DNA from: Patescibacteria group bacterium
GTDB taxonomy: Bacteria > Patescibacteriota > Patescibacteriia > JBHPGJ01
Reading direction: 5' to 3'
DNA: 64,000 nt
Assembly: GCA_042570545.1 (NCBI GenBank)
Contig: JBHPGJ010000005.1
Span: 5,529 to 69,528, forward strand
In this document: positions 17,935 through 54,327 of the stretch, in pieces
How the letters are laid out: the number at the start of each line of letters is the position of its first letter
Numbering within the stretch: position 1 is the stretch's first letter
The notes under the pieces: model-generated
Database searches by the model: none
What the model saw: the letters and a program-made list of their open reading frames with translations, nothing else
What the model was told of the DNA's origin: nothing
Program-made: the position numbers and the translations under genes

Positions 17935-17940
17935 GATGCA

Positions 17941-30684: not shown

Positions 30685-30685
30685 T

Positions 30686-37321: not shown

Positions 37322-37324
37322 TAT

Positions 37325-38614
37325 ATGTTGAGAATTTTTACTAAGGATTTCAAGCAAGGAAAAAATATATTAATTTTTATGTTCTTTAAAGTACTGGGTG
37401 GTGTTTTTGCCGCCTTGCTACCCCTAGCGTTGGCCAAAATACTTGCTCCAGACATAATGGGCTCATTTTCACTGTTTAAGATGATTATTTTTTTCGTCAT
37501 CACGTTTTTTATTGCTCCATTGGCCTATCCGTTTAATATCGAGTCCAATAAAGAATACGCCGCAAGAGGCAAGTCGAATCAGACGTTTACTTCTTTCTTA
37601 ATATACATTGTTTCAACCGTAATTTTGTTTTTTGCTATTTTTGTACTTTTTGGCAAGCAGCTGATCGGCTTTACCGGACTTTCCTATCAAGAATATAAGT
37701 ACATTTTTATTCTAGCCTTCTTAGGACTGGCCCTGTTTCGCATTTTGAATGTATTTTTCTTGGGTCAAAACAAAAAGACAATCCATGCCATTATTGATAC
37801 CGTATATCCTCTGACCCACATAATCTATTTAGTGATTATTTATTATCTTAATATTTTTACCTTAGCCAATGTTCTTCTTGGATATTTTATTGCCGCTGTC
37901 GTGGTCGGTTTAATATCTCTATTTTTCATAGATTATTCTCGAGTGCGACCGCTACAATTTTCTAAAGAAAATTTCAAAGAAATAGGGAGGTTCGGCAGTT
38001 GGGTTATTTTAGGCACAACGGCCGGTTATTTTATCAATTGGGGAGATAATGTTGTGCTAAAGTATTTTGTATCATTATCTGATATTGGTGTGTATAACCT
38101 TGCTTATCAGTTCTTTTTAATGGGCTTAATGCTTCGTTTTTTTATTGGACAATATTATACACCTTTTCTTAGCCAAAAAATTTCCGATAAAGAAAAAATA
38201 ATAAATTATTTCAAGGTAAAAAGGAAGAAAATATTAACCTACTTACTACCCGCTTTTTTAGTTGCTGAATTAGTAATTGGATATGTAATAAGATTGCTTT
38301 TTGATCCTAGTTACTGGGGAGCGATTAATGTTATTAGAATTTTATTGGTGGCAAATATCTTAATGATTATAATCTCATTTCATTTACCAATATTTAATAT
38401 CATTAAAAAATATAAATTAGCTAATATTACTCTAATATTACAACTTACCTTAAACGTGGTATTAAACATTATCCTGGTTCCGTACTGGGGGATTGTGGGG
38501 GCGGCAGTCGCCACTACCGTCGCCTATCTGGTATATGTTATTATAATAGCTATATTATTTAAAAATAAAATTAAACCGGCGCTTAATGATATTTGGATAA
38601 ATAATAAGGAGTAA
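37325..38614 (+). CDS. Wzx-like polysaccharide flippase (MOP superfamily), second copy
   Basis: 'FFKVLGGVFAALLPLALAKILAPDIMGSFSLF' N-terminus and a 12-transmembrane topology. Confidence 0.6.
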   Translation: MLRIFTKDFKQGKNILIFMFFKVLGGVFAALLPLALAKILAPDIMGSFSLFKMIIFFVITFFIAPLAYPFNIESNKEYAARGKSNQTFTSFLIYIVSTVILFFAIFVLFGKQLIGFTGLSYQEYKYIFILAFLGLALFRILNVFFLGQNKKTIHAIIDTVYPLTHIIYLVIIYYLNIFTLANVLLGYFIAAVVVGLISLFFIDYSRVRPLQFSKENFKEIGRFGSWVILGTTAGYFINWGDNVVLKYFVSLSDIGVYNLAYQFFLMGLMLRFFIGQYYTPFLSQKISDKEKIINYFKVKRKKILTYLLPAFLVAELVIGYVIRLLFDPSYWGAINVIRILLVANILMIIISFHLPIFNIIKKYKLANITLILQLTLNVVLNIILVPYWGIVGAAVATTVAYLVYVIIIAILFKNKIKPALNDIWINNKE

Positions 38615-38657
38615 AAAGAAATTATTTAGTAAAGATGAATAAAAGAAACACCATCAT

Positions 38658-39389
38658 ATGAAGTTTATTATTATCGGTATACAAAGGTCAGGCACAATAA
38701 TGCTGACCGCTTTTCTTAATTCACACCCCCAACTGACTTGTTATGCCGAAGAAGGCGCCCAATTCCTGGAAGAACTAAAAGATAATGAGGGTAGTAATTT
38801 AAAATATAACCACATTTTACCTAATACGCCGCTTCAAAATTACAAAATTTTACACCTGATCAGAAAGGATTTATTTGCCCTGTCACTATCAAAAGTTATT
38901 AATAAGCACCAATCAAAATACGGCCGACCAGCACATATATTTAATCGATCAAAAGCCGAAGATTTAGAATTTCCTATTAGTAGTAATTATCCCAAAAGAA
39001 AATTATTATTATCAACATTACCGCAGTCAGCAAAATCAAGGAATAAACAAAAAAGTCCGGTAAAAATTAACCCTTGGGAAATAAGATGGGAAATGCTTAA
39101 AAATTATTATCAGGTTACTCGTTGGAATGAAAAATTGAAGAAGTATGATCCCCTGGTAATCAACTACGAAGATATTACTCAGGGAGGGGAAGTTAATGTA
39201 ATGCCCCAACCAATTGCCGATAATGTCTGCGACTTTTTAGGAGTTAAACATTGTCAATTAACAACATCAATGAAAAAAGTAAACCCAAAAAATTACGAAG
39301 ATTATATCGTCAACTGGAAAAAAATCAGTAAAATTGGCGGCAGCATTACCAAAAAATACCAAAATAAAATTGAATACCTAATCAAATAA
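38658..39389 (+). CDS. Sulfotransferase (Stf0-like family)
   Basis: 5'-PSB P-loop 'IIIGIQRSGTIML' and 3'-PB 'RKDLFALSLS', which fits Stf0 'RRDVLAQAVS'. Confidence 0.7.
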   Translation: MKFIIIGIQRSGTIMLTAFLNSHPQLTCYAEEGAQFLEELKDNEGSNLKYNHILPNTPLQNYKILHLIRKDLFALSLSKVINKHQSKYGRPAHIFNRSKAEDLEFPISSNYPKRKLLLSTLPQSAKSRNKQKSPVKINPWEIRWEMLKNYYQVTRWNEKLKKYDPLVINYEDITQGGEVNVMPQPIADNVCDFLGVKHCQLTTSMKKVNPKNYEDYIVNWKKISKIGGSITKKYQNKIEYLIK

Positions 39390-39394
39390 TAATA

Positions 39395-40213
39395 TCAAAC
39401 TTTTTTTGCTAAGATAAGTCTAGTATCGTTGCAACGGTTTTGATATTGGTGATAAATATTTTTATTTATTTTGGGGTAATAAAGTAAATAATCAACCTGC
39501 TCGATAATTTTGCAGTGATTTTGCAGTATATCAACAATATCGTTCCACTCAATATGATCATCAGGCCAAACGTGAATATCTCCTTCTGCTTGATAGCGCT
39601 TATTAATGAAATTCTTAATAAAAAGACCTTTCACAAAGTTCCAGCTGAATAATTCACCCGATTTCAACGAAGAAGATAATTTTTCCCAAAACGTTTTCTT
39701 GATAAGCTGATAATATTCATTTAATACTGGATTGGGGTGCCAATGATTATTATTGGTTTCGTGGTCGATATATACCAGGCCGTTCTTTTTTGTTACTCGG
39801 ACCATTTCCTCAATGGCTGATAGATAATCTGGTATGTGGTGCAGTACTGAATATGTTGAAACAATATCAAATGAATTATCAGGAAAAGGCAATGTCTGTC
39901 CGTTATAAGGTTTGACTTTCAAATTTGGCGAATTAGATTCTTGGCTCAAAATATTCAATGATTTTTCTGAAACATCACAAGCAGTCACTTGACAACCAAA
40001 ATTGATAAATTTTTTTGTTAAATTCCCCGTACCGGCTCCAAAATCTAATACCTGAATGGATTTTAATTTTGTTCTAGAAATAATATCCTTGATTATATTA
40101 TTCAATCTATGCTGTTCGATATCATTATAAATTTCATCATGTTTTTGATTATACTTACAAGCGATCTTGTCGTGGGTAATACGATTATATTTAATTTGTT
40201 TATTGTCTGTCAT
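39395..40213 (-). CDS. Class I SAM-dependent methyltransferase
   Basis: Motif I 'VLDFGAGTGNLTKKF' and 'CDVSE'. Confidence 0.75.
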   Translation of the reverse strand: MTDNKQIKYNRITHDKIACKYNQKHDEIYNDIEQHRLNNIIKDIISRTKLKSIQVLDFGAGTGNLTKKFINFGCQVTACDVSEKSLNILSQESNSPNLKVKPYNGQTLPFPDNSFDIVSTYSVLHHIPDYLSAIEEMVRVTKKNGLVYIDHETNNNHWHPNPVLNEYYQLIKKTFWEKLSSSLKSGELFSWNFVKGLFIKNFINKRYQAEGDIHVWPDDHIEWNDIVDILQNHCKIIEQVDYLLYYPKINKNIYHQYQNRCNDTRLILAKKV

Positions 40214-40252
40214 TGGTAAAGATAATAAATCGAGCCGAGTTAAATGTTCGGA

Positions 40253-40912
40253 TTATTTTCCAAAAGTGTAGCCGAATAATTCAATATCTTCCTGAAAATG
40301 CCGGGCAACAAAATCTTTAGTATACGTATCATAATATTCAGAATAATTTTTGTGTCGACTCACGTTTTTGAACGGTAAAGAGACATCAATTCCGATAGTA
40401 TTTGTCACATAAGAAAAATCATTTTCTAGATTTTCAAATCGGCCGATAAAGTCAACCAGCTGAGCAGACTCAAAATAAAAGAAATCTTTTTGTGTATACA
40501 TCCAATTTTTTACAAACCATTCCAGATAAGAGCGAAAAGAATCTAATTTTTTAACTTTTTTATGACGAATATTATTTTTACTCTGAGATATAAAGTGATA
40601 TAAGGAAACATGGAGATCCCACGGATTTCTTACAAAACCGAATTTAAATGCTTCTTGCCAAAAAGCAGGGTTAATATTATTTTTCACGTCAAATGCAGTC
40701 TGGTGCTTATTAAAAGAGGGAATAAATGGCACGTAACGGCTGATAAAGGGATTTAACCGCTGGCCGAAAGGGGAGCCCTCACAAAGTTTATGAAGCCAGG
40801 CGCTGTGGAGAGGATTGATAACGCCATATGATTTAAGGGCATTGACAATACTTTCTCCCGCCACTTTTCGGTTGTGGATAAAGATAAATTTATTTTTATA
40901 AGAAATTAGCAT
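40253..40912 (-). CDS. Sulfotransferase (carbohydrate-sulfotransferase/Sulfotransfer_2-like)
   Basis: 5'-PSB 'FIFIHNRKVAGESI' (compare PKVACT/PKTGGT) and 3'-PB 'FVRNPWDLHVSLYHF' (compare VRDPFERLVSAY). Confidence 0.6.
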   Translation of the reverse strand: MLISYKNKFIFIHNRKVAGESIVNALKSYGVINPLHSAWLHKLCEGSPFGQRLNPFISRYVPFIPSFNKHQTAFDVKNNINPAFWQEAFKFGFVRNPWDLHVSLYHFISQSKNNIRHKKVKKLDSFRSYLEWFVKNWMYTQKDFFYFESAQLVDFIGRFENLENDFSYVTNTIGIDVSLPFKNVSRHKNYSEYYDTYTKDFVARHFQEDIELFGYTFGK

Positions 40913-40918
40913 AATTGG

Positions 40919-42052
40919 CTATTTATTGCGGAGATCATAATAATACTGATTAAGCCTTTTAGTGTATTTAGTAAGATAAAATTGTTGAGCGTTTGTTAAA
41001 CCGTTTTTTGATAAATTATTTCGTAATTTATCGTTACGATTTAAAAAATTAATTTTATTTTTTAAATCACCGCTATTATCAATGTTAAAAAATATTCCAT
41101 TAACATTATCAGTAATAATTTCTTTTAGAGCCGGTATATTGGCCGCAATAACGGGTATGCCCATAGATTGGGCCTCCACCGCCACTAAGCCCATGGATTC
41201 ACTGGAAGATGGGACAACCAAACAATCTAAAAGGGAATAAAACCACGCCATATTGTTTACAAAACCCAAGTAATTAATATTATTAGAATGTCCACTAGAA
41301 CTAATTAACCGCAGCATTTTATCCCTTTCTGGTCCATCGCCTGCAATTAATAATTTTATTTTGTCGTTATCATTTAATAACTCTAAAACTGAATTTATCA
41401 TTCTTTCCCATCCTTTTTCTGGATCTATTCTACCAGAAAAACCAATTACGAATTGATTTGATTGTATTCCCAAATTAGTTCTCTCATTTTTTATATCCCA
41501 AGTAATATTTTCTTTAGAGTATTTATTCTGATTAACGAAATTACTTAATAATATTATCCGGTTTTTACTAATTTTAGCTTTATCAATGAAAGCATTTCTG
41601 ACATAGTTTGAAACAGCAATAAATTTATCAACTACTAATCCAAAAAAATTAAGGTAAAAGATATACCATAAATACTTAAAACCCTTATTATGAGTTGATA
41701 TAAGAAAACCATGCTCGTGATAGATAATATTAATTCGGTGAATAAAAAAGATTTTTAAAAAAAAGGCATACAGCAAGGGTTTTGCAAGATGCAGATGTAG
41801 TATTTCGAAATTATTCTTTTTAATTATATTTTTTAGTTCAAGTAAAATACTAAAACTAAATTTGTAAGGTTTAAATGAGTTAAAGTAAAATACTTTGTCA
41901 TTTATATTATTGAAAATGTTGACCTGAGTTTTCTTAAATACATAAACAAAGTGATTATCAAGATTCTGACATAAATCTCTCACTTGCGATTGGGCTCCTC
42001 CCAGATATGAGTTTGATATAATGTGTAATACTTTTATCTTTTCGGCGGTCAT
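40919..42052 (-). CDS. GT4 (GT-B) glycosyltransferase
   Basis: 'KVLHIISNSYLGGAQSQV' N-domain and 'SESMGLVAVEAQSMGIPVIAANIPALKEIITDNVNGIFF'. Confidence 0.8.
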   Translation of the reverse strand: MTAEKIKVLHIISNSYLGGAQSQVRDLCQNLDNHFVYVFKKTQVNIFNNINDKVFYFNSFKPYKFSFSILLELKNIIKKNNFEILHLHLAKPLLYAFFLKIFFIHRINIIYHEHGFLISTHNKGFKYLWYIFYLNFFGLVVDKFIAVSNYVRNAFIDKAKISKNRIILLSNFVNQNKYSKENITWDIKNERTNLGIQSNQFVIGFSGRIDPEKGWERMINSVLELLNDNDKIKLLIAGDGPERDKMLRLISSSGHSNNINYLGFVNNMAWFYSLLDCLVVPSSSESMGLVAVEAQSMGIPVIAANIPALKEIITDNVNGIFFNIDNSGDLKNKINFLNRNDKLRNNLSKNGLTNAQQFYLTKYTKRLNQYYYDLRNK

Positions 42053-42092
42053 TATTCTATGATCTTTTTACGTTACCGGTAAAAATAATGTA

Positions 42093-42857
42093 TCATTGAT
42101 TACCTTTACTTTGAAAAACAAACTGATTACATCCCGATATTCCCAAGGGCGGTATGACTTTTAATAATTTAAAACCACGTCGGTTTAAAAATTCAATCAC
42201 TTCAGACTTAGTGGCATATTCATAAGGATAACCACCGAGCCAATCGATGGCATCGTAATAAAATTTCATTCCACGTTTTTTCTTAAAAAACCTTCGACGA
42301 TAAATTAATATCTTCAACGGCGCTACCAGAATGAAGTAGAATAATTCAATTAACCACTTAATTATGCGAGGCGAATGATGATAAAGCCACTTTTCTATTT
42401 TCCAGAAGGGACTCATAAAATTTTTATTATAAATAGCTAACATTAATAATCCATCAAGGTGGACCAATTTAGTAGCATTATCGATCGCCTGCCACATATC
42501 TCCGGTATGATGTAGCGATCCCCAGGCATAGACAATATCAAATTTACCCAAGGCAGTAATTTGTGGATCTAAAGCAGATAATTTTTTAAATTTAATATCG
42601 TTGATATTATATTTTACTGCATTTTCAATCGAACATTGAATTGAGCTGGGCAATACATCAATACCAATGACTGGCTTGGCGCCTAATTGATGGGCGCCAA
42701 TGCTAAATATTCCTGAACCACAGCCAATGTCGATAAAGCTCTTATTAGACAATCTTCTCGGTCCAAACAACTGTTCTAGGGATTTTATAGCTTCATCAAA
42801 TTCAGTTTTGGTTAATGATTTAGAATAATTTCTCCAATTTTTCCCAAAATCAAACAT
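42093..42857 (-). CDS. Class I SAM-dependent methyltransferase
   Basis: Motif I 'FIDIGCGSGIFSIGAHQLGAKPVIGIDV'. Confidence 0.75.
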   Translation of the reverse strand: MFDFGKNWRNYSKSLTKTEFDEAIKSLEQLFGPRRLSNKSFIDIGCGSGIFSIGAHQLGAKPVIGIDVLPSSIQCSIENAVKYNINDIKFKKLSALDPQITALGKFDIVYAWGSLHHTGDMWQAIDNATKLVHLDGLLMLAIYNKNFMSPFWKIEKWLYHHSPRIIKWLIELFYFILVAPLKILIYRRRFFKKKRGMKFYYDAIDWLGGYPYEYATKSEVIEFLNRRGFKLLKVIPPLGISGCNQFVFQSKGNQ

Positions 42858-42885
42858 AGGATTTAATAATCTTTGAATAATAAAA

Positions 42886-43692
42886 TCACGACTGAATAAC
42901 TACGGCAACATAGGGGGAGAGGAACCTATTTTTACCGTTGTATTTAATAATCTTAGCAAAACGAGAAATGATAGAACTAAATAAATTAAAAAAATATTTT
43001 AATCTTGTATGTTTATTACCAAAAAAGGTTACTCCCAAATTAATCCCACCGCAATAATCAATATATTTAGTTTTTAAATCTAGCTTTTGGCATACATTTT
43101 TTACTGCCTCAAGATTAGTAATTGATAAATTGTGCTCTAATAAGTCATCTTTATTTATCGCTCGTTGAAGTCGATAATTTAAGCTTTTGTGCTGTTTGTC
43201 AAAATTGGGAACAGTAATAATTAATATCCCATTTTCATTTAATATTTTTAAGTGCTTTTTAATTATGTTTTCAACATCAGGAAAATGTTCAATAAATCCC
43301 AGACTAAGAACCAGATCATATTTTTTACTAAAATTGTAGTTTAAAAAATCATCGTAAATCAGTTCGTAATCATTAACTCCCAATAATCTCAAGTTCTCCT
43401 TAGTTTTTGCTACCCCCACTTCGCTGTATTCAATCCCGGCAACATTCATATTATGTTTTATTTTAAAATAATGCATCCAGATTCCTGGAGCGCAACCAAT
43501 TTCTATCATACTTTTTTTATCTGAAGAGTATTTATCAAACAAAGCCGTCAACAAAGTAATCGGATTTTTTTTTACATCAACAGTTGTTGGTAGATTGGAT
43601 CTATCCCATCTGCCGGACCAGTAATGTGAGTCAGTAATTTCTTTTTCCATGTAAATGTTTTTATGTATTTTGCTTAAATAATTGATGCTCAA
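42886..43692 (-). CDS. Class I SAM-dependent methyltransferase
   Basis: 'MIEIGCAPGIWMHYF...VAGIEYSE'. Confidence 0.7.
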   Translation of the reverse strand: MSINYLSKIHKNIYMEKEITDSHYWSGRWDRSNLPTTVDVKKNPITLLTALFDKYSSDKKSMIEIGCAPGIWMHYFKIKHNMNVAGIEYSEVGVAKTKENLRLLGVNDYELIYDDFLNYNFSKKYDLVLSLGFIEHFPDVENIIKKHLKILNENGILIITVPNFDKQHKSLNYRLQRAINKDDLLEHNLSITNLEAVKNVCQKLDLKTKYIDYCGGINLGVTFFGNKHTRLKYFFNLFSSIISRFAKIIKYNGKNRFLSPYVAVVIQS

Positions 43693-43710
43693 ATTAATAA
43701 TATTTTCGTA

Positions 43711-45516
43711 TTATACCATCCATTTCTCATACCACCTATTAAACGAAAATAATACCCAAAATAGATGTGAATAATCAGAATCTCCTTTTTGATGCTTTTT
43801 CCACAACTTTTTTAATTGTTCCTTATCATAGTAATTAAATAATTCAAAGTTGAATAATTTATCGTAAAAATAATCTTTTAATTCCTTTCTAATATAATGT
43901 TCTAGGGGCACCCCGAAACCTTTCTTTTTCCGGCGCAGTACCTTAGCTGGAATAAGACCGTGAAAAGCTTTTTTTAAGATGTATTTTTTTTGTCCAGATC
44001 TGAATTTGTATTTCAAAGGCAAATTATTAACATATTCCACCAAGCGGTGGTCTAAAAACGGTATTCTGCCTTCTAAGCTTACACCCATAGTTGCCCTGTC
44101 CTCTTTGACTAGTAGATCGTTTGGTAAATATTCATTTTGATCAAAGTTTAAAATATTAAAAATGGAATTATCATACCGAAATAGCTTATCAAAGTCCTTT
44201 AGTGATTTATCGGCGCCAATTTTCAACTCATCTTTATCTCTGAATAAATAGCTAAAAAGTTTTAGATATAATTCCTGTTCATTCTTTACGTTTAATAAAA
44301 TATTTAATTTATTTGCCTTATCTTTATTTAATAATTTGTAAATAACACTTAGGGATTTTTTAAGCCAGGCAGGTAAGCGCCTAAGTTTGTTTAAATATAT
44401 GAAATCACTATAGCGGTTGTAGCCGAAAAATATCTCGTCGCCACCAGTACCGGATAGACACACTTTGACTTGTTTTTTTGCCACACTGGCAACCAAGTAG
44501 GTCGGAATCATAGAAGGATCCCCAAGCGGTTCATTAAAATAATCAACTAGATTTGGGATTAGCTGTTTAATTTTCTGAGCGTCGAATCTTATTTCGTAAT
44601 GATTGGTTTCTAGTTCTTGAGCAATTTTTTTTGCCCATTCGGCTTCATCGTAATCTTTATAATCAAAAGATATTGAATAGGTTTTAAGATTCTTATTATA
44701 TTTTTTCATTAAATAACAAATGATAGAACTATCAATACCCCCCGACAGAAAAGCACCAACTGGTACGTCGGCAATCATCCTTTTTTTTACAGAGTCATCC
44801 AGTAAATGTCGTATGGTGTTGGTGGCCTCCGGAAAAGGTATGTCCTGTTCTGAAAAATGATTATCCCAATATTTGGTAATTGAAAAAGTCTTTCTTTCTA
44901 TATCAAATATACCATAAGAACCAGGTGGCAGTTTATTGATATTATTAATAATGGATTGATTGCCAGGAACAAAACCTAAAAATAAATAATGATTTAATGC
45001 TTGTTTGTTAATTTCCTTTTTAATGCCAGCCTTAAGGAATAACTTCAATTCTGATCCAAACAGAAAATTCCCATCTTTATGATAAAAATAGAATGGTTTA
45101 AAACCAAGCCGGTCTCGGGCCACAAATAATATTTTTTTTATCTTGTCATAAACACAAAAAGCAAAGTCACCATTTAGATATTCGGGACAATTCTCACCCC
45201 ATTCGATATAGGCGTTTAATAAAACCTCAGTGTCTGTCTTGGTACGAAATTTATAACCTCGTTTAAGTAATTTTTCTTTCAGTTCTATGAAATTGTATAT
45301 TTCACCATTATATACAATAATGTAATTTTTTGTAGCATCGGTAAAAGGTTGCTTGCCGTCTTCAGACAAATCTAAAATTGCTAGTCTTTTATGCGCAAAG
45401 CTTACATTATTATCTTGATATGATCCATCCTGATCCGGGCCCCGATATTCCATGAGACAACTTAAATCTATAAGTTGTTTTTCTTCTATGAAATTACTGC
45501 CTACTATGCCACACAT
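43711..45516 (-). CDS. Asparagine synthetase B-type glutamine amidotransferase (WbpS-like glycan amidotransferase candidate)
   Basis: N-terminal 'MCGIVG' Ntn nucleophile, 'YNGEIYNF', and the PP-loop 'SGGIDSS'. Confidence 0.8.
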   Translation of the reverse strand: MCGIVGSNFIEEKQLIDLSCLMEYRGPDQDGSYQDNNVSFAHKRLAILDLSEDGKQPFTDATKNYIIVYNGEIYNFIELKEKLLKRGYKFRTKTDTEVLLNAYIEWGENCPEYLNGDFAFCVYDKIKKILFVARDRLGFKPFYFYHKDGNFLFGSELKLFLKAGIKKEINKQALNHYLFLGFVPGNQSIINNINKLPPGSYGIFDIERKTFSITKYWDNHFSEQDIPFPEATNTIRHLLDDSVKKRMIADVPVGAFLSGGIDSSIICYLMKKYNKNLKTYSISFDYKDYDEAEWAKKIAQELETNHYEIRFDAQKIKQLIPNLVDYFNEPLGDPSMIPTYLVASVAKKQVKVCLSGTGGDEIFFGYNRYSDFIYLNKLRRLPAWLKKSLSVIYKLLNKDKANKLNILLNVKNEQELYLKLFSYLFRDKDELKIGADKSLKDFDKLFRYDNSIFNILNFDQNEYLPNDLLVKEDRATMGVSLEGRIPFLDHRLVEYVNNLPLKYKFRSGQKKYILKKAFHGLIPAKVLRRKKKGFGVPLEHYIRKELKDYFYDKLFNFELFNYYDKEQLKKLWKKHQKGDSDYSHLFWVLFSFNRWYEKWMV

Positions 45517-45520
45517 ATAT

Positions 45521-46627
45521 TTATAAATTTTTTAATATAGTTAGTAACATATCCGAATTCTTGTTAATATCATGATTTATCACAGCGTACTGAAATGCCT
45601 TTTGGCTCATGTTGTTATATGATTCTCTATCTGATGTTAACCGATGTAAATATTTCTTCAGTAGTTCTGAATCATTATTACAATAATATCCACAGCCATA
45701 CTTAGTGATAAAGTAGTCGGGATTTACTGCTAAACTTAAAATTGGCACTTTATTTTTAGCGGCTTGAATGAACGTATTGGGGAAGCCTTCATATTTTGAA
45801 GTATTAACAAATGCTTTGGCCTTTCTGAAATAATCATCGATTTCAATAAAAGGAACAAATTTAATAAAACGTAAGTTTTTTATATTAGATGCCTCCTGGG
45901 CAAGCTTATCAGATAATCCTGGGTTCTCGGTGGCGGGCGGGCAAATCATTACAAAATGTTCTTGAGGAAAATTTTTGGCTAACTCAATAAATTTTTCCGG
46001 TTGTTTCCAGGGCATGCTCCTGGCCACCCAGAGAATATATTCACCAGCATTTTTATTAAAATCATTTATTGAGTATCCTGATCGAATTAAAACTGATTGA
46101 CATCTTTTTAATTCACGTAGTTTGTCTGCTTGATAGTTATTCTGAACAATTATTACGTTAGCAATTTTAAAAGTTAAATTGGCCAACTTTTTACTTATGT
46201 AGTGTTTATATATATTATGGGTATCATCTGTTTCTGAATTATGCGAGACCATATAGATCAGCTTTTTCCGCTTAAATTTGCAATATAGGGCAATTAGCCC
46301 AGATAAAGGAGTTAGTGTCCGCTGAAGATAAATGTCGGCATTTATACGGTTGAAGCTTGATATGAATTGTCCGATTTGTCTGATAATATTATGCTTGAAA
46401 TTTAAAGAGTTCCAAACTTTTATCTGGTTGTATTCTTCCAGTTTATTTTGACCAAAATCGGCAACCATAAAATGAATATCTAGACTATCATCTTTAATTA
46501 TCTCTTGGGCCAGCAAATATAGCTGAACCTCGGCTCCGCCAAAGGTTGATTTTACTTTAGGATTAAACAGCTGATAAGCTTTGGGAGAGATAAAGCAAAC
46601 TCTGCTTCTTTGTCTTTCTTTTTCCAT
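45521..46627 (-). CDS. GT4-like (GT-B) glycosyltransferase
   Basis: 'FGGAEVQLYLLAQEI' N-domain and C-terminal 'NTSKYEGFPNTFIQAAKNKVPILS'. Confidence 0.65.
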   Translation of the reverse strand: MEKERQRSRVCFISPKAYQLFNPKVKSTFGGAEVQLYLLAQEIIKDDSLDIHFMVADFGQNKLEEYNQIKVWNSLNFKHNIIRQIGQFISSFNRINADIYLQRTLTPLSGLIALYCKFKRKKLIYMVSHNSETDDTHNIYKHYISKKLANLTFKIANVIIVQNNYQADKLRELKRCQSVLIRSGYSINDFNKNAGEYILWVARSMPWKQPEKFIELAKNFPQEHFVMICPPATENPGLSDKLAQEASNIKNLRFIKFVPFIEIDDYFRKAKAFVNTSKYEGFPNTFIQAAKNKVPILSLAVNPDYFITKYGCGYYCNNDSELLKKYLHRLTSDRESYNNMSQKAFQYAVINHDINKNSDMLLTILKNL

Positions 46628-46628
46628 G

Positions 46629-47504
46629 TTAATAATGCTTCCTATAAACCCATTTCTTATTAAAAGGATAACTAATAATAGTAGCCAGAAATCTTGTTAA
46701 TGGTCCTTTATTAATTTTCCAATTATCATCTTTTTTTATTTGTGAAAATTCTTTTCTTTTTTCAGTGCGGGCCAGGCGGTTGCCACCCAAATTATGGTAA
46801 TCCATTAACCGGATGATTTCCGGGTAATTATCAGGAATCACAATATCTATAAACGATCCGATTGTTTTTAAATATTTATTGGGATTCTCACAGAACTGAT
46901 CATAGCTGATAACCAAGCTTTTTACTTGTGATAATCTCAGATAGCGAAAGATTAACTTATTGACGAATATCCACTTAAGAAGAGATATAAAATAATTTTT
47001 CGGTTTTTTTCCTTCCACCATCTTATTAAATGAATTTGCTGTTCCCCGGCCATCCCGGACAATGTGTATGTTATAAACTTCCAATCTATTATCATTAACC
47101 AATTCAATAAGACGACCAAGCTCTTTAGAGGAATCTAAAATAAAATCCGTATTAGGCGGTAAATTGTTTTGAATCTGGTTTAACAACAAGTAATTTTCTG
47201 GACTTGACAGCTGACCAATCTTTTTTTTGGAGAAATAAAGATATCGAAGAATAGTTAAGTAGTTTTTTAAATTTGCTCTGTTTACAATCCTGATATCCCT
47301 AGTAATAATACGGCTCCAAAAATTGCAATGTGTCATATTTTTACCGCATGAGCATAACCGATCGTCATTTTTATATTCGTTATAGCGATATATTTCACCC
47401 ACACTAAAAACATTTGGGCTGGTTGAGATAATTATATCAAGTAGGGTAGAGCCGCTACGCCCTAAACCCGAGATATATATGACCTTTATCTTGTTGTCAT
47501 CCAT
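46629..47504 (-). CDS. Sulfotransferase (Stf0/Sulfotransfer_3-like)
   Basis: 5'-PSB 'IYISGLGRSGSTLL' and 3'-PB 'IVRDGRGTANS'. Confidence 0.7.
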   Translation of the reverse strand: MDDNKIKVIYISGLGRSGSTLLDIIISTSPNVFSVGEIYRYNEYKNDDRLCSCGKNMTHCNFWSRIITRDIRIVNRANLKNYLTILRYLYFSKKKIGQLSSPENYLLLNQIQNNLPPNTDFILDSSKELGRLIELVNDNRLEVYNIHIVRDGRGTANSFNKMVEGKKPKNYFISLLKWIFVNKLIFRYLRLSQVKSLVISYDQFCENPNKYLKTIGSFIDIVIPDNYPEIIRLMDYHNLGGNRLARTEKRKEFSQIKKDDNWKINKGPLTRFLATIISYPFNKKWVYRKHY

Positions 47505-47537
47505 TAAATTAGTTGTTTAATGAAATATATAGGACTA

Positions 47538-48647
47538 TCACTTTAAAATATTATCGTATTTTTCAATAATAATTTTCCAGTCATACATTTTCTTAACTCG
47601 TTCTCGTGCAATATTTTGCGATCTTTTCATTTCATCCGGGTGGTTTATTAATTGCCAGATTGCCTGTCGAATTTTTTCTGGGTTGTTAGGGGGTAATAAT
47701 GTACCAGCCCCATTAACAGTTTCAGCACAGCCATACACATCACTTGTAATCATAGCGCAACCGGCCGACATCGCCTCAAGAAGAGCTATGCTGGCATTCT
47801 CTCTTTCCGAAACCAGGACATATATTGCCGCTTGCTCAAGTAGATTTATATATTTTTGACTTTTATTATCTAGCCAGCCGTGAAATACTATTTTTGTTTT
47901 CGACTGAGCTGCTATTTCATTAAGTTTATTCATCATTGGTCCGTCGCCGCAGACGTTCACCTGATAACCAATATCATTATCTGCTACCGCTGTAATTAAA
48001 TGTTGAAATCCTTTTCTTCTAAGAAGCCGACCGGAAGTAAAGATTGATTTGTTCTTAGTATTAGGCAAGAACGAATCCGGATCAATGCCGTTTGGGATAT
48101 AAATTAAATTAGTCAGATTGTTAGAAATATTTTTCTTAATTAAGCGCTTTAGATATTGGGATGGCGCCACCACATATTTGGAATTTACGGCTATACTTTT
48201 TAAAATGGGGCCGGTAAATTTGTGTAGAAAACTGAATCGATCAGGATTATAACCCGGCACATCGCTGCCATGACTGGTAACGATGTAGGGTAGTTTGTGA
48301 CGCTTAAAAAGCCAATAAGCGATTACGCCGGTTGGAATTAAAAAGTGTGTATGACAAATATCATAGTTACGCTTTTTATGCAATTGGCTACTAAGTCGGT
48401 AGGCGGGGATCAAATAGGTTAGCTGTTCATGTGGATAGCACATCTCTTTTTTTGAACGCCAACACCTGACCCGATAAATATTTATATTATCCTTTATTTC
48501 AAATCGGGGTATATTTTTGAACCCCATTGTAATAACATCAACTTGATGTCCAAGCCGTGCGTAGCCCTTGGCTATCTCATAACTAACCGGACTTGCTCCT
48601 CCGCCAAGTGGCGGGAACTCATAGTTTAGTACAAGTATTTTTTTCAT
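47538..48647 (-). CDS. GT4 (GT-B) glycosyltransferase
   Basis: 'ILVLNYEFPPLGGGASPV' and 'ENASIALLEAMSAGCAMITSDVYG'. Confidence 0.8.
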   Translation of the reverse strand: MKKILVLNYEFPPLGGGASPVSYEIAKGYARLGHQVDVITMGFKNIPRFEIKDNINIYRVRCWRSKKEMCYPHEQLTYLIPAYRLSSQLHKKRNYDICHTHFLIPTGVIAYWLFKRHKLPYIVTSHGSDVPGYNPDRFSFLHKFTGPILKSIAVNSKYVVAPSQYLKRLIKKNISNNLTNLIYIPNGIDPDSFLPNTKNKSIFTSGRLLRRKGFQHLITAVADNDIGYQVNVCGDGPMMNKLNEIAAQSKTKIVFHGWLDNKSQKYINLLEQAAIYVLVSERENASIALLEAMSAGCAMITSDVYGCAETVNGAGTLLPPNNPEKIRQAIWQLINHPDEMKRSQNIARERVKKMYDWKIIIEKYDNILK

Positions 48648-49450
48648 AAACTATTCTTTTTTTTATTATCTTGCATACCAACTATAATTTCATCGTGAAA
48701 ATAGCCATTAGAAGCAACTAGTCCATTAGGAAGGGTTGGTTTTTCTTTATTGTAATGAATAACCCTTCCATTTTTATCAGTTACTCTACCGCCGGCTTCA
48801 TGGAGAATAATGTCCGGTGCGCAACTGTCATATTCACTCATCCTATTAGTTGAATTAAAAAAACAGTCAGCGCCTCCCTCGGCAATTAAACTGATTTTTA
48901 CTCCATTACTACCCATTTTAATTGGTTTAGGAAGACGCAAACACTTGGCTGTGTAGGCGTCGTCGTCACTATAGTGGTTACGACTAGTTAAGAATACAGC
49001 TTTATCTAAGCGATGATTTTGTGAAACTCGTAATCTTTTTGGAGATTTCCCGCTTTCACGCAAATAGGCCCCCTTGCCAGTCTGTGCAAAATAGAGCTTT
49101 TTTTGCAACGGTAAATATACGACACCAAGGATGGGGCGACTATAGTGTACCAAGCCAATCATTATAGAAAATTCACCCGTGCCTTGAATAAAATCGGTTG
49201 TGCCATCAAGAGGATCAACAATCCATACAAATTCTTTTTTCATACGTTCCCGATCGTCAGCCTTTTCTTCGGAAATCATCCCATAATTTTTGTTTTGTAA
49301 TTGTGAAATAATTATGGCCCCAGATTGTTTATCAGCCTCCGTTACAGCCTCATTGTCTCGGTAGTCGATTTTAATATTTCTTTTGTAGTAGGTAAGTATC
49401 TTTTCACCGGCGATTTGTGCAGCAGTTTGTGCTCGAGCTAGATCAGACAT
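48644..49450 (-). CDS. cysQ: 3'(2'),5'-bisphosphate nucleotidase / inositol monophosphatase family
   Basis: 'VWIVDPLDGTTDFI' and 'WDSCAPDIIL'-type metal motifs. It is co-oriented with, and overlaps, cysNC. Confidence 0.65.
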   Translation of the reverse strand: MSDLARAQTAAQIAGEKILTYYKRNIKIDYRDNEAVTEADKQSGAIIISQLQNKNYGMISEEKADDRERMKKEFVWIVDPLDGTTDFIQGTGEFSIMIGLVHYSRPILGVVYLPLQKKLYFAQTGKGAYLRESGKSPKRLRVSQNHRLDKAVFLTSRNHYSDDDAYTAKCLRLPKPIKMGSNGVKISLIAEGGADCFFNSTNRMSEYDSCAPDIILHEAGGRVTDKNGRVIHYNKEKPTLPNGLVASNGYFHDEIIVGMQDNKKKNSL

Positions 49451-51267
49451 TATAACTTGTTAATGTAATGATGTTTTTCAAGGTAGGTAAGCAACTTTTG
49501 TACTGAATTTTCTACGCTTTCTTCGTGTGTTAGTAATTCAAGATCAGGATTTTCTGGCTCTTCGTAGGGGTGGGAAATGCCGGTAAAATCTTTAATTTTT
49601 CCTTCTTTGGCTTTTTTATACATGCCTTTGACGTCGCGTTCTTTACATATCTCCAGTGGTGCGTTGACAAAAACTTCAATATAATTTTTCACTTCTTTTT
49701 TTATTAGTTCACGCTGACGGCGATAGGGAGAAATAAAAGAAGCCAGTACTATTACGCCATGTTTACTGAGCAGCTTGGCTACAAAGGAAACGCGTTTAAT
49801 ATTTTCATCGCGGTCTTCCTTAGAAAAACCCAGATCACCAGTAAGCGATTTCCGCACGATATCACCGTCAAGACTTTCTGTACTTACGTTACGTCGATGC
49901 AGTTCCTCTGCCAGTGCATTAGCGATGGTGCTTTTGCCCGATCCGGAAAGACCAGTAAACCATACTACGGCACCTGTTTTTTTATTGGCTTTGATTATAT
50001 CTGTTTCAGACTTTTTTGGAGCGGTGCGTAAAATTATACCAGCCGCAATCGTATTATTTGTAATTTCATCAATAAGAATGAAGTTGCCGGTATTGCGATT
50101 TTTACTATAAGGATCAAAAAACAGGGGGTCGAGGGTTCTGATGAATGCTCGGCCAATATCGTTCATATTTAATTCATTATCTTTAATTCGATGAAGAGTA
50201 TCAATATTCAGACGATAATGTAATCGTGGTATAAAGGCGCTGGTAGAGCGGGTAGTATGTTTTAGGATATATCTTTTGTTTAGTTCTAGTGGTGCTTCAG
50301 CAAACCAGGATATCATAGCTTCAATTTCATCACTTGTTTCTGGTTGGTTATTTTCCCGAATTATCATTTCTCCCCGACTGACATCTAACTGGTCATTAAG
50401 TGTTATCAATGCTGACTGTGGATTAAAAGCCTCTTTTTGATTTTTATTGTCAAAAACAATGTTTTTAATCTTTGATTTTTTATTACTTGGTAATAGCATA
50501 ACTTGGTCGCCCTTTTTAATCACTCCGCCCTCAACTTTACCGGTATAGCCCCTTTCGTTGGGTGACAGTCGTATTACATTTTGAATTGGATATCTAAAAT
50601 CAATCAAATTACGGTTACTGGAAATCTCAATATTTTCCAGTAAATTAAAAAGGGTAGTACCATTGTACCAGCTCATTTTAGTTCCCCGATTAACTATCAT
50701 GTCACCATTCAAAGCTGATACGGGTATGAATTGTAGATCACGAATATCTAATTTTGCAGCAAACAAAGATAATTCATCTTTGATTGAATCGTAGGTCTCT
50801 TGTTTGAAACTAATTGAGTCCATCTTATTTATAACAATTATGATATGAGGTATGCCTAAAAGACTGGCGATAAATAGATGACGTTTTGATTGGGTGGTAA
50901 TTCCATTATGGGCATCAATTAAAATTAAAGCCATGTCGGCATTCGATGCGCCCGTGACCATGTTTCTGGTATATTGTTCGTGACCCGGAACATCAGCGAT
51001 AATAAATCTTTTTTTTGGTGTAGAAAAATATCTATAAGCTACGTCAATTGTTATCCCTTGTTCTCGCTCAGCCGATAAACCATCAGTGAATAACGATAAA
51101 TCAACTTCGTTACCACCCCTTTTTTGACTAGTTTTTTTAATTGCCTCATATTGGTCTTCATAGATTAAATTTGTATCATAGAAAAGGCGGCCAATCATTG
51201 TGGATTTACCATCGTCAACGCTACCCGCTATTACTATTCTAACTAGTTGCTTATTGCTATCCGACAC
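49450..51267 (-). CDS. cysNC: Bifunctional sulfate adenylyltransferase subunit 1 / APS kinase (NodQ-type fusion)
   Basis: N-terminal GTPase '[11 protein letters not shown]' and '[12 protein letters not shown]'. C-terminal APS kinase '[18 protein letters not shown]...LDGDIVR'. Confidence 0.9.
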
Positions 51268-52173
51268 TTAAAAATATCCCTCTTTCTTTTTGGCTTCCAT
51301 AGCACTTTCCGAGCTATAATCAATAGCTCTAGTTTCTCGTTCTGATTTTTTAGCTTTCAGAGTCTCCTCTATTATCATATCAATATTAGAAGCTGTAGAG
51401 GGGACGCAGCCTGTAGAAGGCGAACAGCCCAAAGTACGGTAACGGGTTGACATCTCTAGAACCTTTTCGTCTTCTTTTGGTTGAACAAATTCGTCTACTC
51501 TTAATAATACGTTATTTCGCTTAATTACCTTTCTTTTCTGGGCAAAATATAATGGGACAACCTCAATTTTTTCATGTTTTATATATTCCCAAATATCATT
51601 TTCCATCCAATTAGAAAGAGGAAAAATTCTAACCGATTCAGTCTCGTTGATACGGCAATTATAGAGGTGCCATAATTCGGGCCGCTGGTTTTTTGGATCC
51701 CATGAACCAATATCATTACGTAATGAAAATATTCTTTCCTTAGCGCGCGATTTCTCCTCCTCACGGCGGGCGCCGCCAAAGGCAGCATCAAATTCATTTT
51801 TTTTAATGGCCTCAAGTAATGGTTTGGTTTTTTTGTAATATATGTAGTTGTCAGTATTTGCTTCTTCCGGTTTCATTTGTTTAGCTGTTGGTTCGTTATT
51901 TTTCTCAACTATCAACTCAGCTCCGATCTTTTTAGTAAAATAATCTCTGAATTTAATCATTTCATTGAATTTGAAGCCAGTATCAATGTGCAATAAAGGA
52001 AACGGTAATTTGTTAGGATAGAAGGCTTTTTGTGCCAATCTCAACATAACTGAGGAATCTTTGCCAATGGAATAAAGCATGACGGGATTTTTAAATTCAG
52101 CAGTTGTTTCTCTTATTATATGAATACTTTCGGATTCAAGTTGTTTTAGATAGTTTATGCCGTAATCTCTCAT
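51268..52173 (-). CDS. cysD: Sulfate adenylyltransferase subunit 2
   Basis: PAPS-reductase-fold 'LYSIGKDSSVMLRLAQKAF' with CysD-type ends. Confidence 0.88.
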   Translation of the reverse strand: MRDYGINYLKQLESESIHIIRETTAEFKNPVMLYSIGKDSSVMLRLAQKAFYPNKLPFPLLHIDTGFKFNEMIKFRDYFTKKIGAELIVEKNNEPTAKQMKPEEANTDNYIYYKKTKPLLEAIKKNEFDAAFGGARREEEKSRAKERIFSLRNDIGSWDPKNQRPELWHLYNCRINETESVRIFPLSNWMENDIWEYIKHEKIEVVPLYFAQKRKVIKRNNVLLRVDEFVQPKEDEKVLEMSTRYRTLGCSPSTGCVPSTASNIDMIIEETLKAKKSERETRAIDYSSESAMEAKKKEGYF

Positions 52174-52292
52174 AATATTAATTTATAGATCTATCCCACT
52201 GTATGGAATTCCAAGCGCGTTCATGTAAATAATAAAAAATAGATGTGGCCTTGGTTGGGCTGCGCTGCTGATCATCTGCATTTATATCACCG

Positions 52293-53249
52293 TTAGTCAT
52301 TATCTTTCTTATTCTCAAAGATATCTTTTATGGCGTAAGCTTTACGATTACCATTAAAGTATGTTTTAACAGCAATATCAGCCAATAGGCCGGAAACAAA
52401 TAATTGGATACCCGCTAGTACCAGAAAAAAAGCTACTAACGGCCAAATGCGATTAGCTAATGAAAAGCTGTAAAAGTATCTTAAGACGAATAATATTATT
52501 CCCAAAACCGATCCTGATAGTATAAGTAGGAGCCCAACACCGCCAAATAAATGTAGTGGACGAGACGCATATTTACGCCAAAACCAGACCGAAAGCATGT
52601 CAACAAAACCTTTAACAATACGGCGCCAACTATACTTAGTCTGACCGGCTACCCGGGGACGATGATTAACTTTTATTTCACCGATGCGAAAACCTTGCCA
52701 TCTTAGCATGGCCGGAATAAAACGATGCATCTCGCCAAATAAAGTTAATTTATGAAAACATTCACGCCGGTATGCTTTCAGAGTACAACCCGAATCATGA
52801 ATATTATCCTTTATTAAAATACTACGAAGAGTGTTAGCACCGCGTGAAATAAAATTCTTTGAAGCTGAATCTTTACGTTGCCAGCGCCAACCAGATACCA
52901 CGTCATACCCTTCATTGATCTTATTGATTAGCCGGGGAATATCTTTAGGATCATTTTGCCGGTCCGCATCCATAGTTACTATGATCTCACCAGCGGCTTC
53001 ATGAAAACCGGCATCCATTGCTGCTGTCTGGCCGAAATTTTTTCTAAAACGAATAATTTTTACCGGTCTTAAGGTTTTTAATTTCTTAAAAGTGTCATCC
53101 GACGAACCGTCATCGATAAATATAATTTCAAATGGCTGGTTTAAAGTGTTCATTACTGAAGTAATTTCCTGATGCAGCTGAATGACATTTTCTTGTTCGT
53201 TATATGTCGGAATTACCAATGAATATTTTATTTCCTCAATGTTGGTCAT
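52293..53249 (-). CDS. GT2 polyprenyl-phosphate glycosyltransferase (ArnC/GtrB-like) with C-terminal transmembrane helices
   Basis: 'YSLVIPTYNEQENV', 'IFIDDGSSDDT' and 'MDADRQNDP', with two C-terminal transmembrane helices. Confidence 0.8.
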   Translation of the reverse strand: MTNIEEIKYSLVIPTYNEQENVIQLHQEITSVMNTLNQPFEIIFIDDGSSDDTFKKLKTLRPVKIIRFRKNFGQTAAMDAGFHEAAGEIIVTMDADRQNDPKDIPRLINKINEGYDVVSGWRWQRKDSASKNFISRGANTLRSILIKDNIHDSGCTLKAYRRECFHKLTLFGEMHRFIPAMLRWQGFRIGEIKVNHRPRVAGQTKYSWRRIVKGFVDMLSVWFWRKYASRPLHLFGGVGLLLILSGSVLGIILFVLRYFYSFSLANRIWPLVAFFLVLAGIQLFVSGLLADIAVKTYFNGNRKAYAIKDIFENKKDND

Positions 53250-54202
53250 GTTCGATTATCCTTATACCATTTGATAAATTTATTCATACCGTCGGCGAAG
53301 CCGGTTTGCGGATTAAAATTTAATAATTGTTTAGCCTTGGTGATATCAGAATATGTTTGGTTAACATCACCTGGCTGCATCGGCAGTTGTTTTATTTTAG
53401 CTTTCTTGCCTAAAGCACTTTCTACAATATTTATAAATTCATTTAGAGTAACTGTGTTTGAATTACCAAGATTAATAATCTTAAAGCCAAAGTTTTTATC
53501 TAAGGTAGCCAATACCCCATCAATAATGTCGTCAATATAGGTATAATCTCGTCTTGTTTCACCCGTACCAAATTTTTTTAGTTCTTTGTCATTCCAGATC
53601 CATTCCGTAAATAGATATGGTGCCATATCCGGCCGTCCTTTTGGCCCGTAGACCGTAAAAAATCTTAGACAAACAGTGTCAATGTCATATAAGTGATGAT
53701 AAGTAGACATTAATAATTCACCCGCTCGCTTAGTCGCTGCGTATGGCGAGATAGGACGATCAACTGAATCTTTTTCTGAAAAAGGAACCTTTTTTTGATT
53801 ACCATACACTGATGAAGAAGAAGCAAATATAAACTTCTTTATTCCATTTTGACGAGCCAGTTCCAATAAGTTTTGGGTCCCATTAACATTTACACGAGTA
53901 TAGAGCTGGGGAAACTTAAGTGAAGGCCTGACTCCTGCTCGAGCGGCGATATGAATTATGGCATCAATATTTTCAAATTGCCCGAAAGCTGACTGTAATT
54001 TATCCCAGTCAGCAATATCTACTTTTATTAAAATGTAGTTCTTATGAACCTTAAATAATTCTATATTCTCGTGTTTATAACGAGGATTATAGTAATCATT
54101 AAAATCATCAATACAGATAACACGATGCCCTCGTTCGAGTAGAGCTTCGGTCAGATGTGAACCAATAAAACCAGCTCCACCAGTCAACAAATAAGTTTTC
54201 AT
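53246..54202 (-). CDS. UDP-glucuronate 4-epimerase-like SDR (GlaE/Cap1J family)
   Basis: 'LLTGGAGFIGSHLTEAL', 'FASSSSVYG', 'YAATKRAGELL' and the family-typical 'RFFTVYGPKGRPDMAPYLFT'. Confidence 0.75.
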   Translation of the reverse strand: MKTYLLTGGAGFIGSHLTEALLERGHRVICIDDFNDYYNPRYKHENIELFKVHKNYILIKVDIADWDKLQSAFGQFENIDAIIHIAARAGVRPSLKFPQLYTRVNVNGTQNLLELARQNGIKKFIFASSSSVYGNQKKVPFSEKDSVDRPISPYAATKRAGELLMSTYHHLYDIDTVCLRFFTVYGPKGRPDMAPYLFTEWIWNDKELKKFGTGETRRDYTYIDDIIDGVLATLDKNFGFKIINLGNSNTVTLNEFINIVESALGKKAKIKQLPMQPGDVNQTYSDITKAKQLLNFNPQTGFADGMNKFIKWYKDNRT

Positions 54203-54327
54203 AGAAAAATATTAATAAAACAATGCAAAAACTGAGCACAACTATAACAGAAAATTAGGTGAGTGTAAAGATGCGAAAATAAGTGTTTTTTGTTGTAAAC
54301 AATGGTTTTTTAAATTACTATTAGTTT

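Follow-up and report, generated by a model that had tools for sequence, protein, structure and literature searches.

The 64,000-nucleotide stretch of contig JBHPGJ010000005.1 analysed here (the window) comes from the metagenome-assembled genome (MAG) of an uncultured Patescibacteria group bacterium. It carries a contiguous block of genes (34718-54202) in which genes for the supply and turnover of 3'-phosphoadenosine-5'-phosphosulfate (PAPS) stand together with three sulfotransferases, glycosyltransferases (GTs) and export genes. We propose that this block provides a dedicated PAPS supply for the cytoplasmic sulfation of a lipid-linked, methylated and amidated glycan, which is flipped across the membrane by a Wzx-type flippase, and we regard this as the likely role of the locus. 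The proposal starts from what is observed, i.e. the gene identities and intact motifs, the sulfotransferase folds, the linkage of the genes, and a sulfotransferase fused to a family 4 glycosyltransferase (GT4) in a relative. A preliminary description of this DNA had already suggested that PAPS is dedicated here to glycan sulfation; conserved synteny supports that suggestion most, and profile hidden Markov models (HMMs), motifs and predicted folds support it as well.

PAPS genes and sulfotransferases

The preliminary description had identified cysD, a NodQ-style cysN-cysC fusion and cysQ, and all three genes are indeed present, with profile matches (Table 1) and intact motifs. In the CysN-CysC protein, the GTPase motifs G1, G3 and G4, the kinase P-loop and the LDGD motif are intact and the APS_kinase domain occupies residues 432-578. 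Among the matches listed, its relatives in the genome collection are at most 57% identical, save for two short fragmentary contigs, and belong to mixed phyla (Smithella, Bacteroidota, Thermoplasmatota). The CysQ-like protein clearly belongs to the Inositol_P family. Its assignment as a putative CysQ leans on the DPLDGT motif and on a conserved position beside CysNC, which is also found in L085, L089, L091 and L096 (related loci described below); its NCBI name is CysQ. The top NCBIfam match is likewise CysQ (TIGR01331, 158 bits versus a cutoff of 229), with HisN close behind at 142 bits.

These genes lie in a minus-strand run, counted as sixteen genes, that extends from 54202 to 39395. It opens with a GalE-like epimerase and an ArnC/PgfS-like GT2, followed by CysD, CysN-CysC, the CysQ-like protein, GT4-3, ST-C, GT4-2, an AsnB-type amidotransferase, the methyltransferases MT3 and MT2, GT4-1, ST-B and, as the last gene of the run, MT1. 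On the map of open reading frames (ORFs), the gaps from cysD onward (52173 to 39395) are 40 nt or less throughout and several genes overlap. The PAPS genes had been placed at the head of this operon, which could not be demonstrated: the epimerase and GT2 genes lie upstream of cysD in the same direction, with a spacing of 119 nt between GT2 and cysD. Promoter and terminator scans of the window gave counts equal to those of shuffled controls and operon boundaries were therefore drawn from spacing. The interleaving of sulfotransferases with GT4 genes noted earlier was confirmed (GT4 genes at 40919, 45521 and 47538). The sulfotransferase gene at 38658, however, does not belong to the minus-strand operon to which it had been assigned; it is encoded on the plus strand, in an operon that converges on the minus-strand run and consists of a GT-C/PMT_2 protein (34718), a Wzx-like flippase (37325) and the sulfotransferase ST-A (38658-39389).

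All three sulfotransferases (ST-A, ST-B and ST-C) score above the Pfam thresholds of sulfotransferase families (Table 1), and the 5'-phosphosulfate-binding (5'-PSB) and 3'-phosphate-binding (3'-PB) motifs previously seen in each of them are conserved in every family alignment. Of the family labels given earlier, Sulfotransfer_2 was upheld for the gene at 40253 (PF03567), whereas "Stf0-like" was not upheld for those at 38658 and 46629, which match PF13469. Membership of the Stf0 family was rejected for both ST-A and ST-C, as neither matches PF09037 at E <= 0.01. No transmembrane segments were found in ST-A, ST-B or ST-C.

In ST-C, the 5'-PSB P-loop GRSGST (R16-S17-G18-S19-T20) is invariant in the family alignment, E37 is near-invariant and the 3'-PB pair R150...S158 is conserved. 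Nearly all listed members of its 72 homologues match PF13469. The AlphaFold (AF2) model of ST-C has a predicted local distance difference test score (pLDDT) of 92.8, and in a Foldseek comparison with the PDB the top 50 matches are, without exception (50/50), PAPS sulfotransferases, led by the tyrosylprotein sulfotransferases TPST1 and TPST2 at a template-modelling score (TM) of ~0.60. The family profile matches the sulfotransferase domains of CurM (1e-17) and OLS (2e-16). The ST-C family also possesses an invariant C51-x-C53-G...C60-x2-W63 cluster, with H237 among the other invariant positions. We know of no such cluster in TPST or SULT enzymes; it may represent a metal-binding or structural insert.

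ST-B, which NCBI names a sulfotransferase family 2 protein, carries the 5'-PSB motif H13-x2-K16-x2-G19-x-S21, conserved at 89-95% in 120 homologues, and a 3'-PB motif in which R95 and S103 are both 100% conserved in the same set; its homologue matches number 206, and all those listed carry PF03567. ST-A is a member of a small subfamily; of 1.8 billion representatives, no more than 11 clusters reach E <= 1e-30. Its 5'-PSB motif is QRSGT (R10-S11-G12-T13), in which R10 and G12 are conserved at 90% or more, and in its 3'-PB motif R69...S78 the serine is invariant and the spacing is 9 instead of 8. PF13469 is matched by 24 of 30 ST-A relatives, PF09037 by one of the 30, weakly (1.2e-4). The AF2 model of ST-A is moderate (pLDDT 72.6), and its listed Foldseek neighbours are almost all sulfotransferases, at TM 0.42-0.45, including Stf0 (1tex, TM 0.45). 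PDB searches with single sequences said next to nothing about ST-A and ST-B, and the fold evidence comes from the two modelled enzymes, ST-A and ST-C.

Taken together, the profile matches, the P-loop and the R...S motif place ST-A, ST-B and ST-C, as predicted proteins, in the PAPS-dependent sulfotransferase superfamily. A recent paralogous origin of ST-A and ST-C was rejected, the profile-profile probability in hhalign being 13%. As judged from such comparisons the locus holds three independent sulfotransferase lineages, which suggests that ST-A, ST-B and ST-C catalyse three distinct sulfation reactions.

Gene order in related genomes

Conserved synteny is the strongest evidence for glycan sulfation. 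In related contigs, the same block of GT4, amidotransferase, methyltransferase and flippase genes carries sulfotransferases, and a CysQ-CysNC(-CysD) cassette lies at the same place. In L085/L086 and L089, whose ST-A homologues are 49-67% identical, two PMT_2 genes, Wzx and ST-A converge on a second run of methyltransferases, AsnB, two GT4 genes, CysQ and CysNC. L087/L088 possess the same block, but there the GT4 gene abuts GT2 without PAPS genes. ST-A follows the flippase in L085, L087 and L089 (3/3). The metagenome contig L096 encodes, in order, GT2, CysQ, CysD (70% identical to the window protein), CysNC (57%), GT4-3 (55%), ST-C (42%) and a second sulfotransferase. A locus of Candidatus Peregrinibacteria (L091, indexed in 39 collection blocks) combines CysNC, CysQ, a Sulfotransfer_1/3 gene and a Sulfotransfer_2 gene with GTs and a Wzm/Wzt transporter. 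In Kerfeldbacteria (L081/L082), ST-C homologues occur amid GT2, GT4 and flippase genes downstream of the same epimerase-GT2 pair; here a GT4 gene directly follows this pair and there is no local PAPS cassette. In terms of gene order, the PAPS cassette is present or absent at one fixed position across the relatives. Furthermore, a Parcubacteria contig carries Sat and CysC beside sugar epimerases.

In L089 (ENA ERZ1283812), a single ORF of 661 aa (16080-18065, minus strand) is an in-frame ST-C::GT4-2 fusion. Its N-terminal part (residues 1-293) shares 52% identity with ST-C and the remainder (residues 297-650) shares 49% with GT4-2; in the window, one stop codon and one base stand between the two genes. 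The fusion of a sulfotransferase to a GT4 enzyme is a direct argument for a glycan or glycolipid acceptor, and against the tyrosine sulfation to which the TPST-like fold might point.

Beyond these relatives, Thermoplasmatota MAGs (L028, L031, L032, L034 and L035) encode CysD-CysN-CysC, which rank among the nearest relatives of the window CysNC in the matches listed (52-55% identity), and a weak ST-C-family match follows right after CysC or a few kb beyond. These archaeal loci hint that modules of PAPS genes plus sulfotransferases are shared across domains. In a metagenome scan that used an alignment of 15 closer ST-C sequences, 23 of 31 loci of at least 8 kb with an ST-C-family gene also contained glycan genes; most of the matches are high-GC sulfotransferases that are only distantly related (23-30% identity) and have little bearing here.

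Proposed model, alternatives and known systems

Patescibacteria are expected to lack an outer membrane. In the model that we propose, CysD and the CysN domain would convert sulfate and ATP to adenosine-5'-phosphosulfate (APS) in a GTP-driven reaction, and the fused CysC domain would phosphorylate APS to PAPS. On the inner face of the membrane, the three GT4 enzymes would build an oligosaccharide on a lipid carrier, and the soluble, cytoplasmic ST-A, ST-B and ST-C would move sulfate from PAPS onto different positions of this oligosaccharide. The same intermediate would be O-methylated by the three S-adenosylmethionine (SAM)-dependent methyltransferases, and the AsnB-type amidotransferase probably amidates a uronic acid in it. 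CysQ would hydrolyse the by-product 3'-phosphoadenosine-5'-phosphate, which would otherwise inhibit the sulfotransferases. The decorated unit would then be exported by the Wzx-like flippase, and the large GT-C/PMT_2 protein would attach or polymerise it outside the membrane, with a wall polymer or surface protein as its carrier. In this model we infer the acceptor and the final carrier, the sequence of the steps, and that sulfation takes place while the unit is still in the cytoplasm.

Several points weigh against this model. The sulfotransferases exceed their Pfam thresholds by just 3-11 bits, and the CysQ score lies under the NCBIfam trusted cutoff. The solved enzymes most closely related to ST-C have protein tyrosine (TPST) or an acyl-ACP hydroxyl (CurM) as acceptor, not sugars. 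Neither a sulfate transporter or permease nor a priming phosphoglycosyl transferase was recognised among the scanned window ORFs. The ST-C::GT4-2 fusion is known from a single assembly, the negative result for cysH and sir (below) covers 64 kb of the genome, so that a pathway elsewhere is possible, and the case as a whole is built on sequence, predicted folds and synteny rather than on biochemistry or expression.

The extent of the genome that is visible also bears on the reading that the PAPS module performs ordinary sulfate activation for a CysH and a sulfite reductase encoded elsewhere, with cysteine as the end product and a merely incidental position in a glycan locus. CysD, CysN and CysC are the same enzymes as in assimilation, and the closest CysNC loci outside the Candidate Phyla Radiation (CPR) among the matches listed (Smithella, Bacteroidota) have no adjacent sulfotransferase. 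We nevertheless consider this reading very improbable. The absence of cysH from the window, noted earlier, was borne out, as no CysH-like ORF was found in the 64 kb (the CysD query matched CysD alone, and no other scanned ORF has PF01507); no sulfite reductase domain was found among the scanned window ORFs either. Glycan genes flank the cassette on both sides, the cassette includes CysQ, and it recurs beside sulfotransferases and GTs in L085, L089, L096 and the Peregrinibacteria locus L091. In addition, a survey of groundwater CPR bacteria, the sole relevant mention of CPR that we found, reports PAPS synthase genes and no sulfur-reduction genes (PMC12114108). It is unlikely, though less so, that at least one of the sulfotransferases has a non-glycan acceptor, either protein tyrosine, as in TPST and RaxST, or a lipid or small metabolite, as in Stf0 and CurM, with the glycan genes as mere neighbours. 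Acceptor specificity is not readable from these folds, and the top structural matches of ST-C (tyrosylprotein sulfotransferases, TM 0.60), its top sequence matches (the CurM and OLS domains) and the resemblance of ST-A to Stf0 all agree with such an acceptor. Against this stand the fusion of ST-C to GT4 in L089, the GT4 genes that bracket ST-C in the window with gaps of 1-33 nt, the invariable position of ST-A after a Wzx flippase in L085, L087 and L089, and the membership of ST-B in the carbohydrate-sulfotransferase family PF03567; moreover, neither a RaxX-like peptide accompanied by a type I exporter nor polyketide synthase (PKS) genes were seen among the scanned ORFs.

A variant of our model with another final carrier deserves more weight. 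In this variant the pathway would yield a glycolipid or a protein-linked glycan (on an S-layer or pilin), sulfated in either case, and not a polysaccharide, which we regard as possible although on balance doubtful. The window encodes four GT-C/PMT_2 proteins, the ArnC/PgfS-like GT2 with the GalE-like epimerase resembles the Pgf protein-glycosylation set, the PMT_2 proteins weakly match the archaeal Agl23 family, and neither a Wzy polymerase nor Wzz was recognised among the scanned window ORFs, in addition to the missing priming transferase. Nothing decisive speaks against it, as two Wzx-type flippases and many nucleotide-sugar genes would suit any lipid-linked pathway.

The dedicated PAPS supply proposed here has well-known counterparts. 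In rhizobial Nod-factor sulfation, NodP and NodQ correspond to CysD and a CysN-CysC fusion and supply PAPS to a carbohydrate sulfotransferase. The window shares this arrangement with nodPQ/nodH, but differs from it in that the rhizobial acceptor is a secreted lipo-chitooligosaccharide, the sulfotransferase is single, a flippase/GT-C context is absent and the host assimilates sulfate. In the mycobacterial sulfolipid-1 pathway, a CysN-CysC fusion and CysQ support the cytosolic sulfation of trehalose by Stf0. CysNC and CysQ are common to that pathway and the window, and ST-A is similar to Stf0 in size and weakly in fold; however, the mycobacterial PAPS genes lie apart from the sulfotransferase gene, and the window has no PKS or lipid-assembly genes and no PF09037 match. 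RaxP and RaxQ, i.e. CysD and CysNC, are dedicated to a Sulfotransfer_3-type enzyme. The likeness to TPST and RaxST-RaxPQ lies in ST-C, whose nearest solved folds are TPST1 and TPST2, but the window lacks a substrate peptide and secretion genes, and ST-C is fused to GT4 in a relative.

The closest precedents are the clusters of Cobetia marina KMM 1449 and Vibrio sp. KMM 8419, whose sulfated capsules have been solved structurally (PMC11766843, PMC11641403). Like the window, these clusters encode a cysN/cysC fusion, cysD, (in Cobetia) cysQ, sulfotransferases, GTs and rml genes, and the Vibrio paper regards PAPS genes and sulfotransferases in one cluster as a hallmark of sulfated polysaccharide synthesis (PMC11766843, PMC11641403). 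They belong to Gram-negative Gammaproteobacteria with Kps ABC export, and the Cobetia cassette includes a sulfate permease, whereas the window, from a Patescibacteria MAG, encodes Wzx flippases and GT-C/PMT_2 proteins and no permease was seen in it. The window further differs in its three unrelated sulfotransferases, methyltransferases and amidotransferase, and its system is known from genes alone, whereas the sulfation of the Cobetia and Vibrio products is proven chemically, e.g. as Rha2S (PMC11766843, PMC11641403). In Synechocystis PCC 6803, the xss cluster for synechan is a Wzx-dependent system in which two sulfotransferases from distinct subfamilies are interleaved with GTs, and sulfation has been proposed to occur on the lipid-linked repeat unit, as in our model (PMC8205485). 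Unlike the window, the published xss gene list has no PAPS-synthesis genes, and export across the outer membrane depends on Wzy/PCP/OPX (PMC8205485).

The novelty claimed earlier was overstated. We found no account of sulfotransferases or sulfated glycans in CPR lineages in the papers searched; the design, however, has already been described for the Cobetia and Vibrio capsules, and the existing NCBI annotation of the MAG already names CysD, CysQ and one sulfotransferase. The window proteins match NCBI entries MFC1662950-MFC1662962 exactly, which derive from a contig of 71,233 bp, each being a singleton at 90% identity. The principle of PAPS genes and sulfotransferases inside a polysaccharide cluster is thus known, and what is new is the host lineage. 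The mechanism is textbook, and Gammaproteobacteria with real sulfated capsules have already been linked to it, so that the advance concerns distribution and not principle. New specifics are the three unrelated sulfotransferases, the Wzx/GT-C context, the presence or absence of the cassette at a fixed site and the natural ST-GT4 fusion.

The CPR envelope, whose chemistry is hardly described, mediates attachment to host cells. Judging from the locus, an organism with an otherwise minimal metabolism would make a strongly anionic glycan that is sulfated, methylated and amidated, and the devotion of at least 15 genes, a private PAPS supply and methyl-cycle genes implies that this decoration is important. 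It is conceivable, although we give the idea little credence, that CPR episymbionts share a conserved surface-glycan locus in which the PAPS cassette is swapped in and out between GT2 and the first GT4, and that the lineages with sulfotransferases but no local cassette (L087 and the Kerfeldbacteria L081/L082) rely on PAPS from the host. If this were true, ultra-small bacteria would have in glycan sulfation a host-coupled determinant of attachment or of phage evasion. The three small, soluble sulfotransferases of different lineages are also targets for heterologous expression, as polysaccharide sulfotransferases are wanted for making sulfated glycans.

The wider glycan region

The genes of the sulfation block are collected in Table 1. 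Among the auxiliary enzymes, the amidotransferase has as its top NCBIfam match the XrtA/PEP-CTERM exopolysaccharide (EPS) amidotransferase, under the cutoff of that family, and its predicted target is a uronic-acid carboxyl. GT4-2 is 59% identical to its L085 orthologue. The predicted role of the GT-C/PMT_2 protein at 34718 is an extracytoplasmic transfer or polymerisation step.

Table 1 Coordinates in the window of the genes of the sulfation block, with the profile matches and neighbourhoods that characterise them
Feature	Coordinates	Strand	Evidence
GT-C/PMT_2, large membrane glycosyltransferase	34718-37321	+	PMT_2 30.4 bits; ~18 transmembrane-like segments; syntenic orthologues 47-50% identity
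Wzx-like MOP flippase	37325-38614	+	Polysacc_synt; orthologues 53-58% identical, upstream of ST-A in L085, L087, L089
ST-A, small divergent Sulfotransfer_3 lineage	38658-39389	+	PF13469 30.1 bits (gathering threshold 27)
MT1, SAM-dependent methyltransferase	39395-40213	-	Methyltransf_11 80 bits
ST-B, Sulfotransfer_2 family	40253-40912	-	PF03567 33.2 bits (threshold 22), full-length alignment
GT4-1	40919-42052	-	Glycos_transf_1 131 bits
MT2, SAM-dependent methyltransferase	42093-42857	-	Methyltransf_31/23
MT3, SAM-dependent methyltransferase	42886-43692	-	Methyltransf_23/31
AsnB-type glutamine amidotransferase	43711-45516	-	Asn_synthase 331 bits and GATase_7; kept in L085, L087, L089
GT4-2	45521-46627	-	Glycos_transf_1; start 1 nt past ST-C stop codon
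ST-C, Sulfotransfer_3 lineage with conserved CxC...C cluster	46629-47504	-	PF13469 30.7 bits (threshold 27)
GT4-3	47538-48647	-	Glycos_transf_1 and Glyco_transf_4; orthologues adjoin PAPS cassette or sulfotransferase in L089, L096, L082
CysQ-like 3'(2'),5'-bisphosphate nucleotidase	48644-49450	-	Inositol_P (Pfam) 179 bits; metal-binding DPLDGT motif
CysN-CysC fusion (ATP sulfurylase GTPase subunit plus APS kinase)	49450-51267	-	NF004035 805 bits (cutoff 715)
CysD, ATP sulfurylase small subunit	51268-52173	-	TIGR02039 443 bits (cutoff 397); PP-loop SIGKDS
GT2, ArnC/PgfS-like polyprenyl-phosphate sugar GT	52293-53249	-	Family matches
Epimerase, GalE-like	53246-54202	-	Family matches; paired with GT2 in Kerfeldbacteria L081, L082

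Family scans indicate that ~14.5-63 kb of the window form one large glycan region. It encodes GtrA, GT2, several epimerases and dehydratases, two UDP-sugar dehydrogenases, a GDP-mannose dehydratase and further GT4s, as well as two Wzx flippases, four GT-C/PMT_2 proteins and rmlA-D. Scans of the 64-kb window for tRNAs and Rfam families gave no matches. GC content is 0.30-0.35 over the variable glycan genes (30000-47000), versus 0.36-0.41 for the housekeeping part and the cysNC genes; such a drop is typical of horizontally exchanged O-antigen-like regions.

Divergent from the epimerase/GT2 pair (52293-54202) lie genes for a small protein with four transmembrane segments (54328-54711) and a GT-C protein with 12 (54708-56279). 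The set 52293-56279 looks like a Gtr/Pgf-type three-component system, for the extracytoplasmic addition of a sugar from a polyprenyl-phosphate donor. MetK (SAM synthetase, 16792-17934), a PfkB-family kinase (58256-59212) and S-adenosylhomocysteine hydrolase (SAHH, 59209-60465) are also encoded inside the glycan region, and the SAHH-PfkB-RmlC neighbourhood is shared with Kerfeldbacteria L082. The locus carries its own SAM-cycle genes, alongside six or so methyltransferase-dependent steps, in parallel to its private PAPS supply.

The window ORFs at 29575-30684, 30686-31687, 31684-34626 and 56293-57753 have no family match over threshold. The first two encode adjacent soluble proteins with weak HprK-related-kinase (P-loop) matches alone, and the third a protein of 980 aa with ~6 transmembrane segments; this trio (29575-34626) sits between a flippase and the sulfation block. 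Elsewhere, a 162-kb contig (L093, Logan SRR31093534) carries a Wzy-dependent cluster with one Sulfotransfer_2 and three Sulfotransfer_1 genes, a pyruvyl transferase and a short PAPS_reduct-family gene, and looks like a heavily sulfated EPS locus.

Outside the glycan region, the window encodes a subtilase-like protein (12375-14537), the C-terminal half of which consists of FG-GAP/VCBS-like repeats and which contains a long, near-exact internal duplication of ~90 residues. Two Asn/Thr-rich, low-complexity secreted proteins are encoded at 8884-9738 and 2682-3179, one of which has thrombospondin-type-3-like, Asp-rich calcium-binding repeats at its end, whereas a cupredoxin-like, His-rich domain closes the other; these two proteins may be glycosylation targets.

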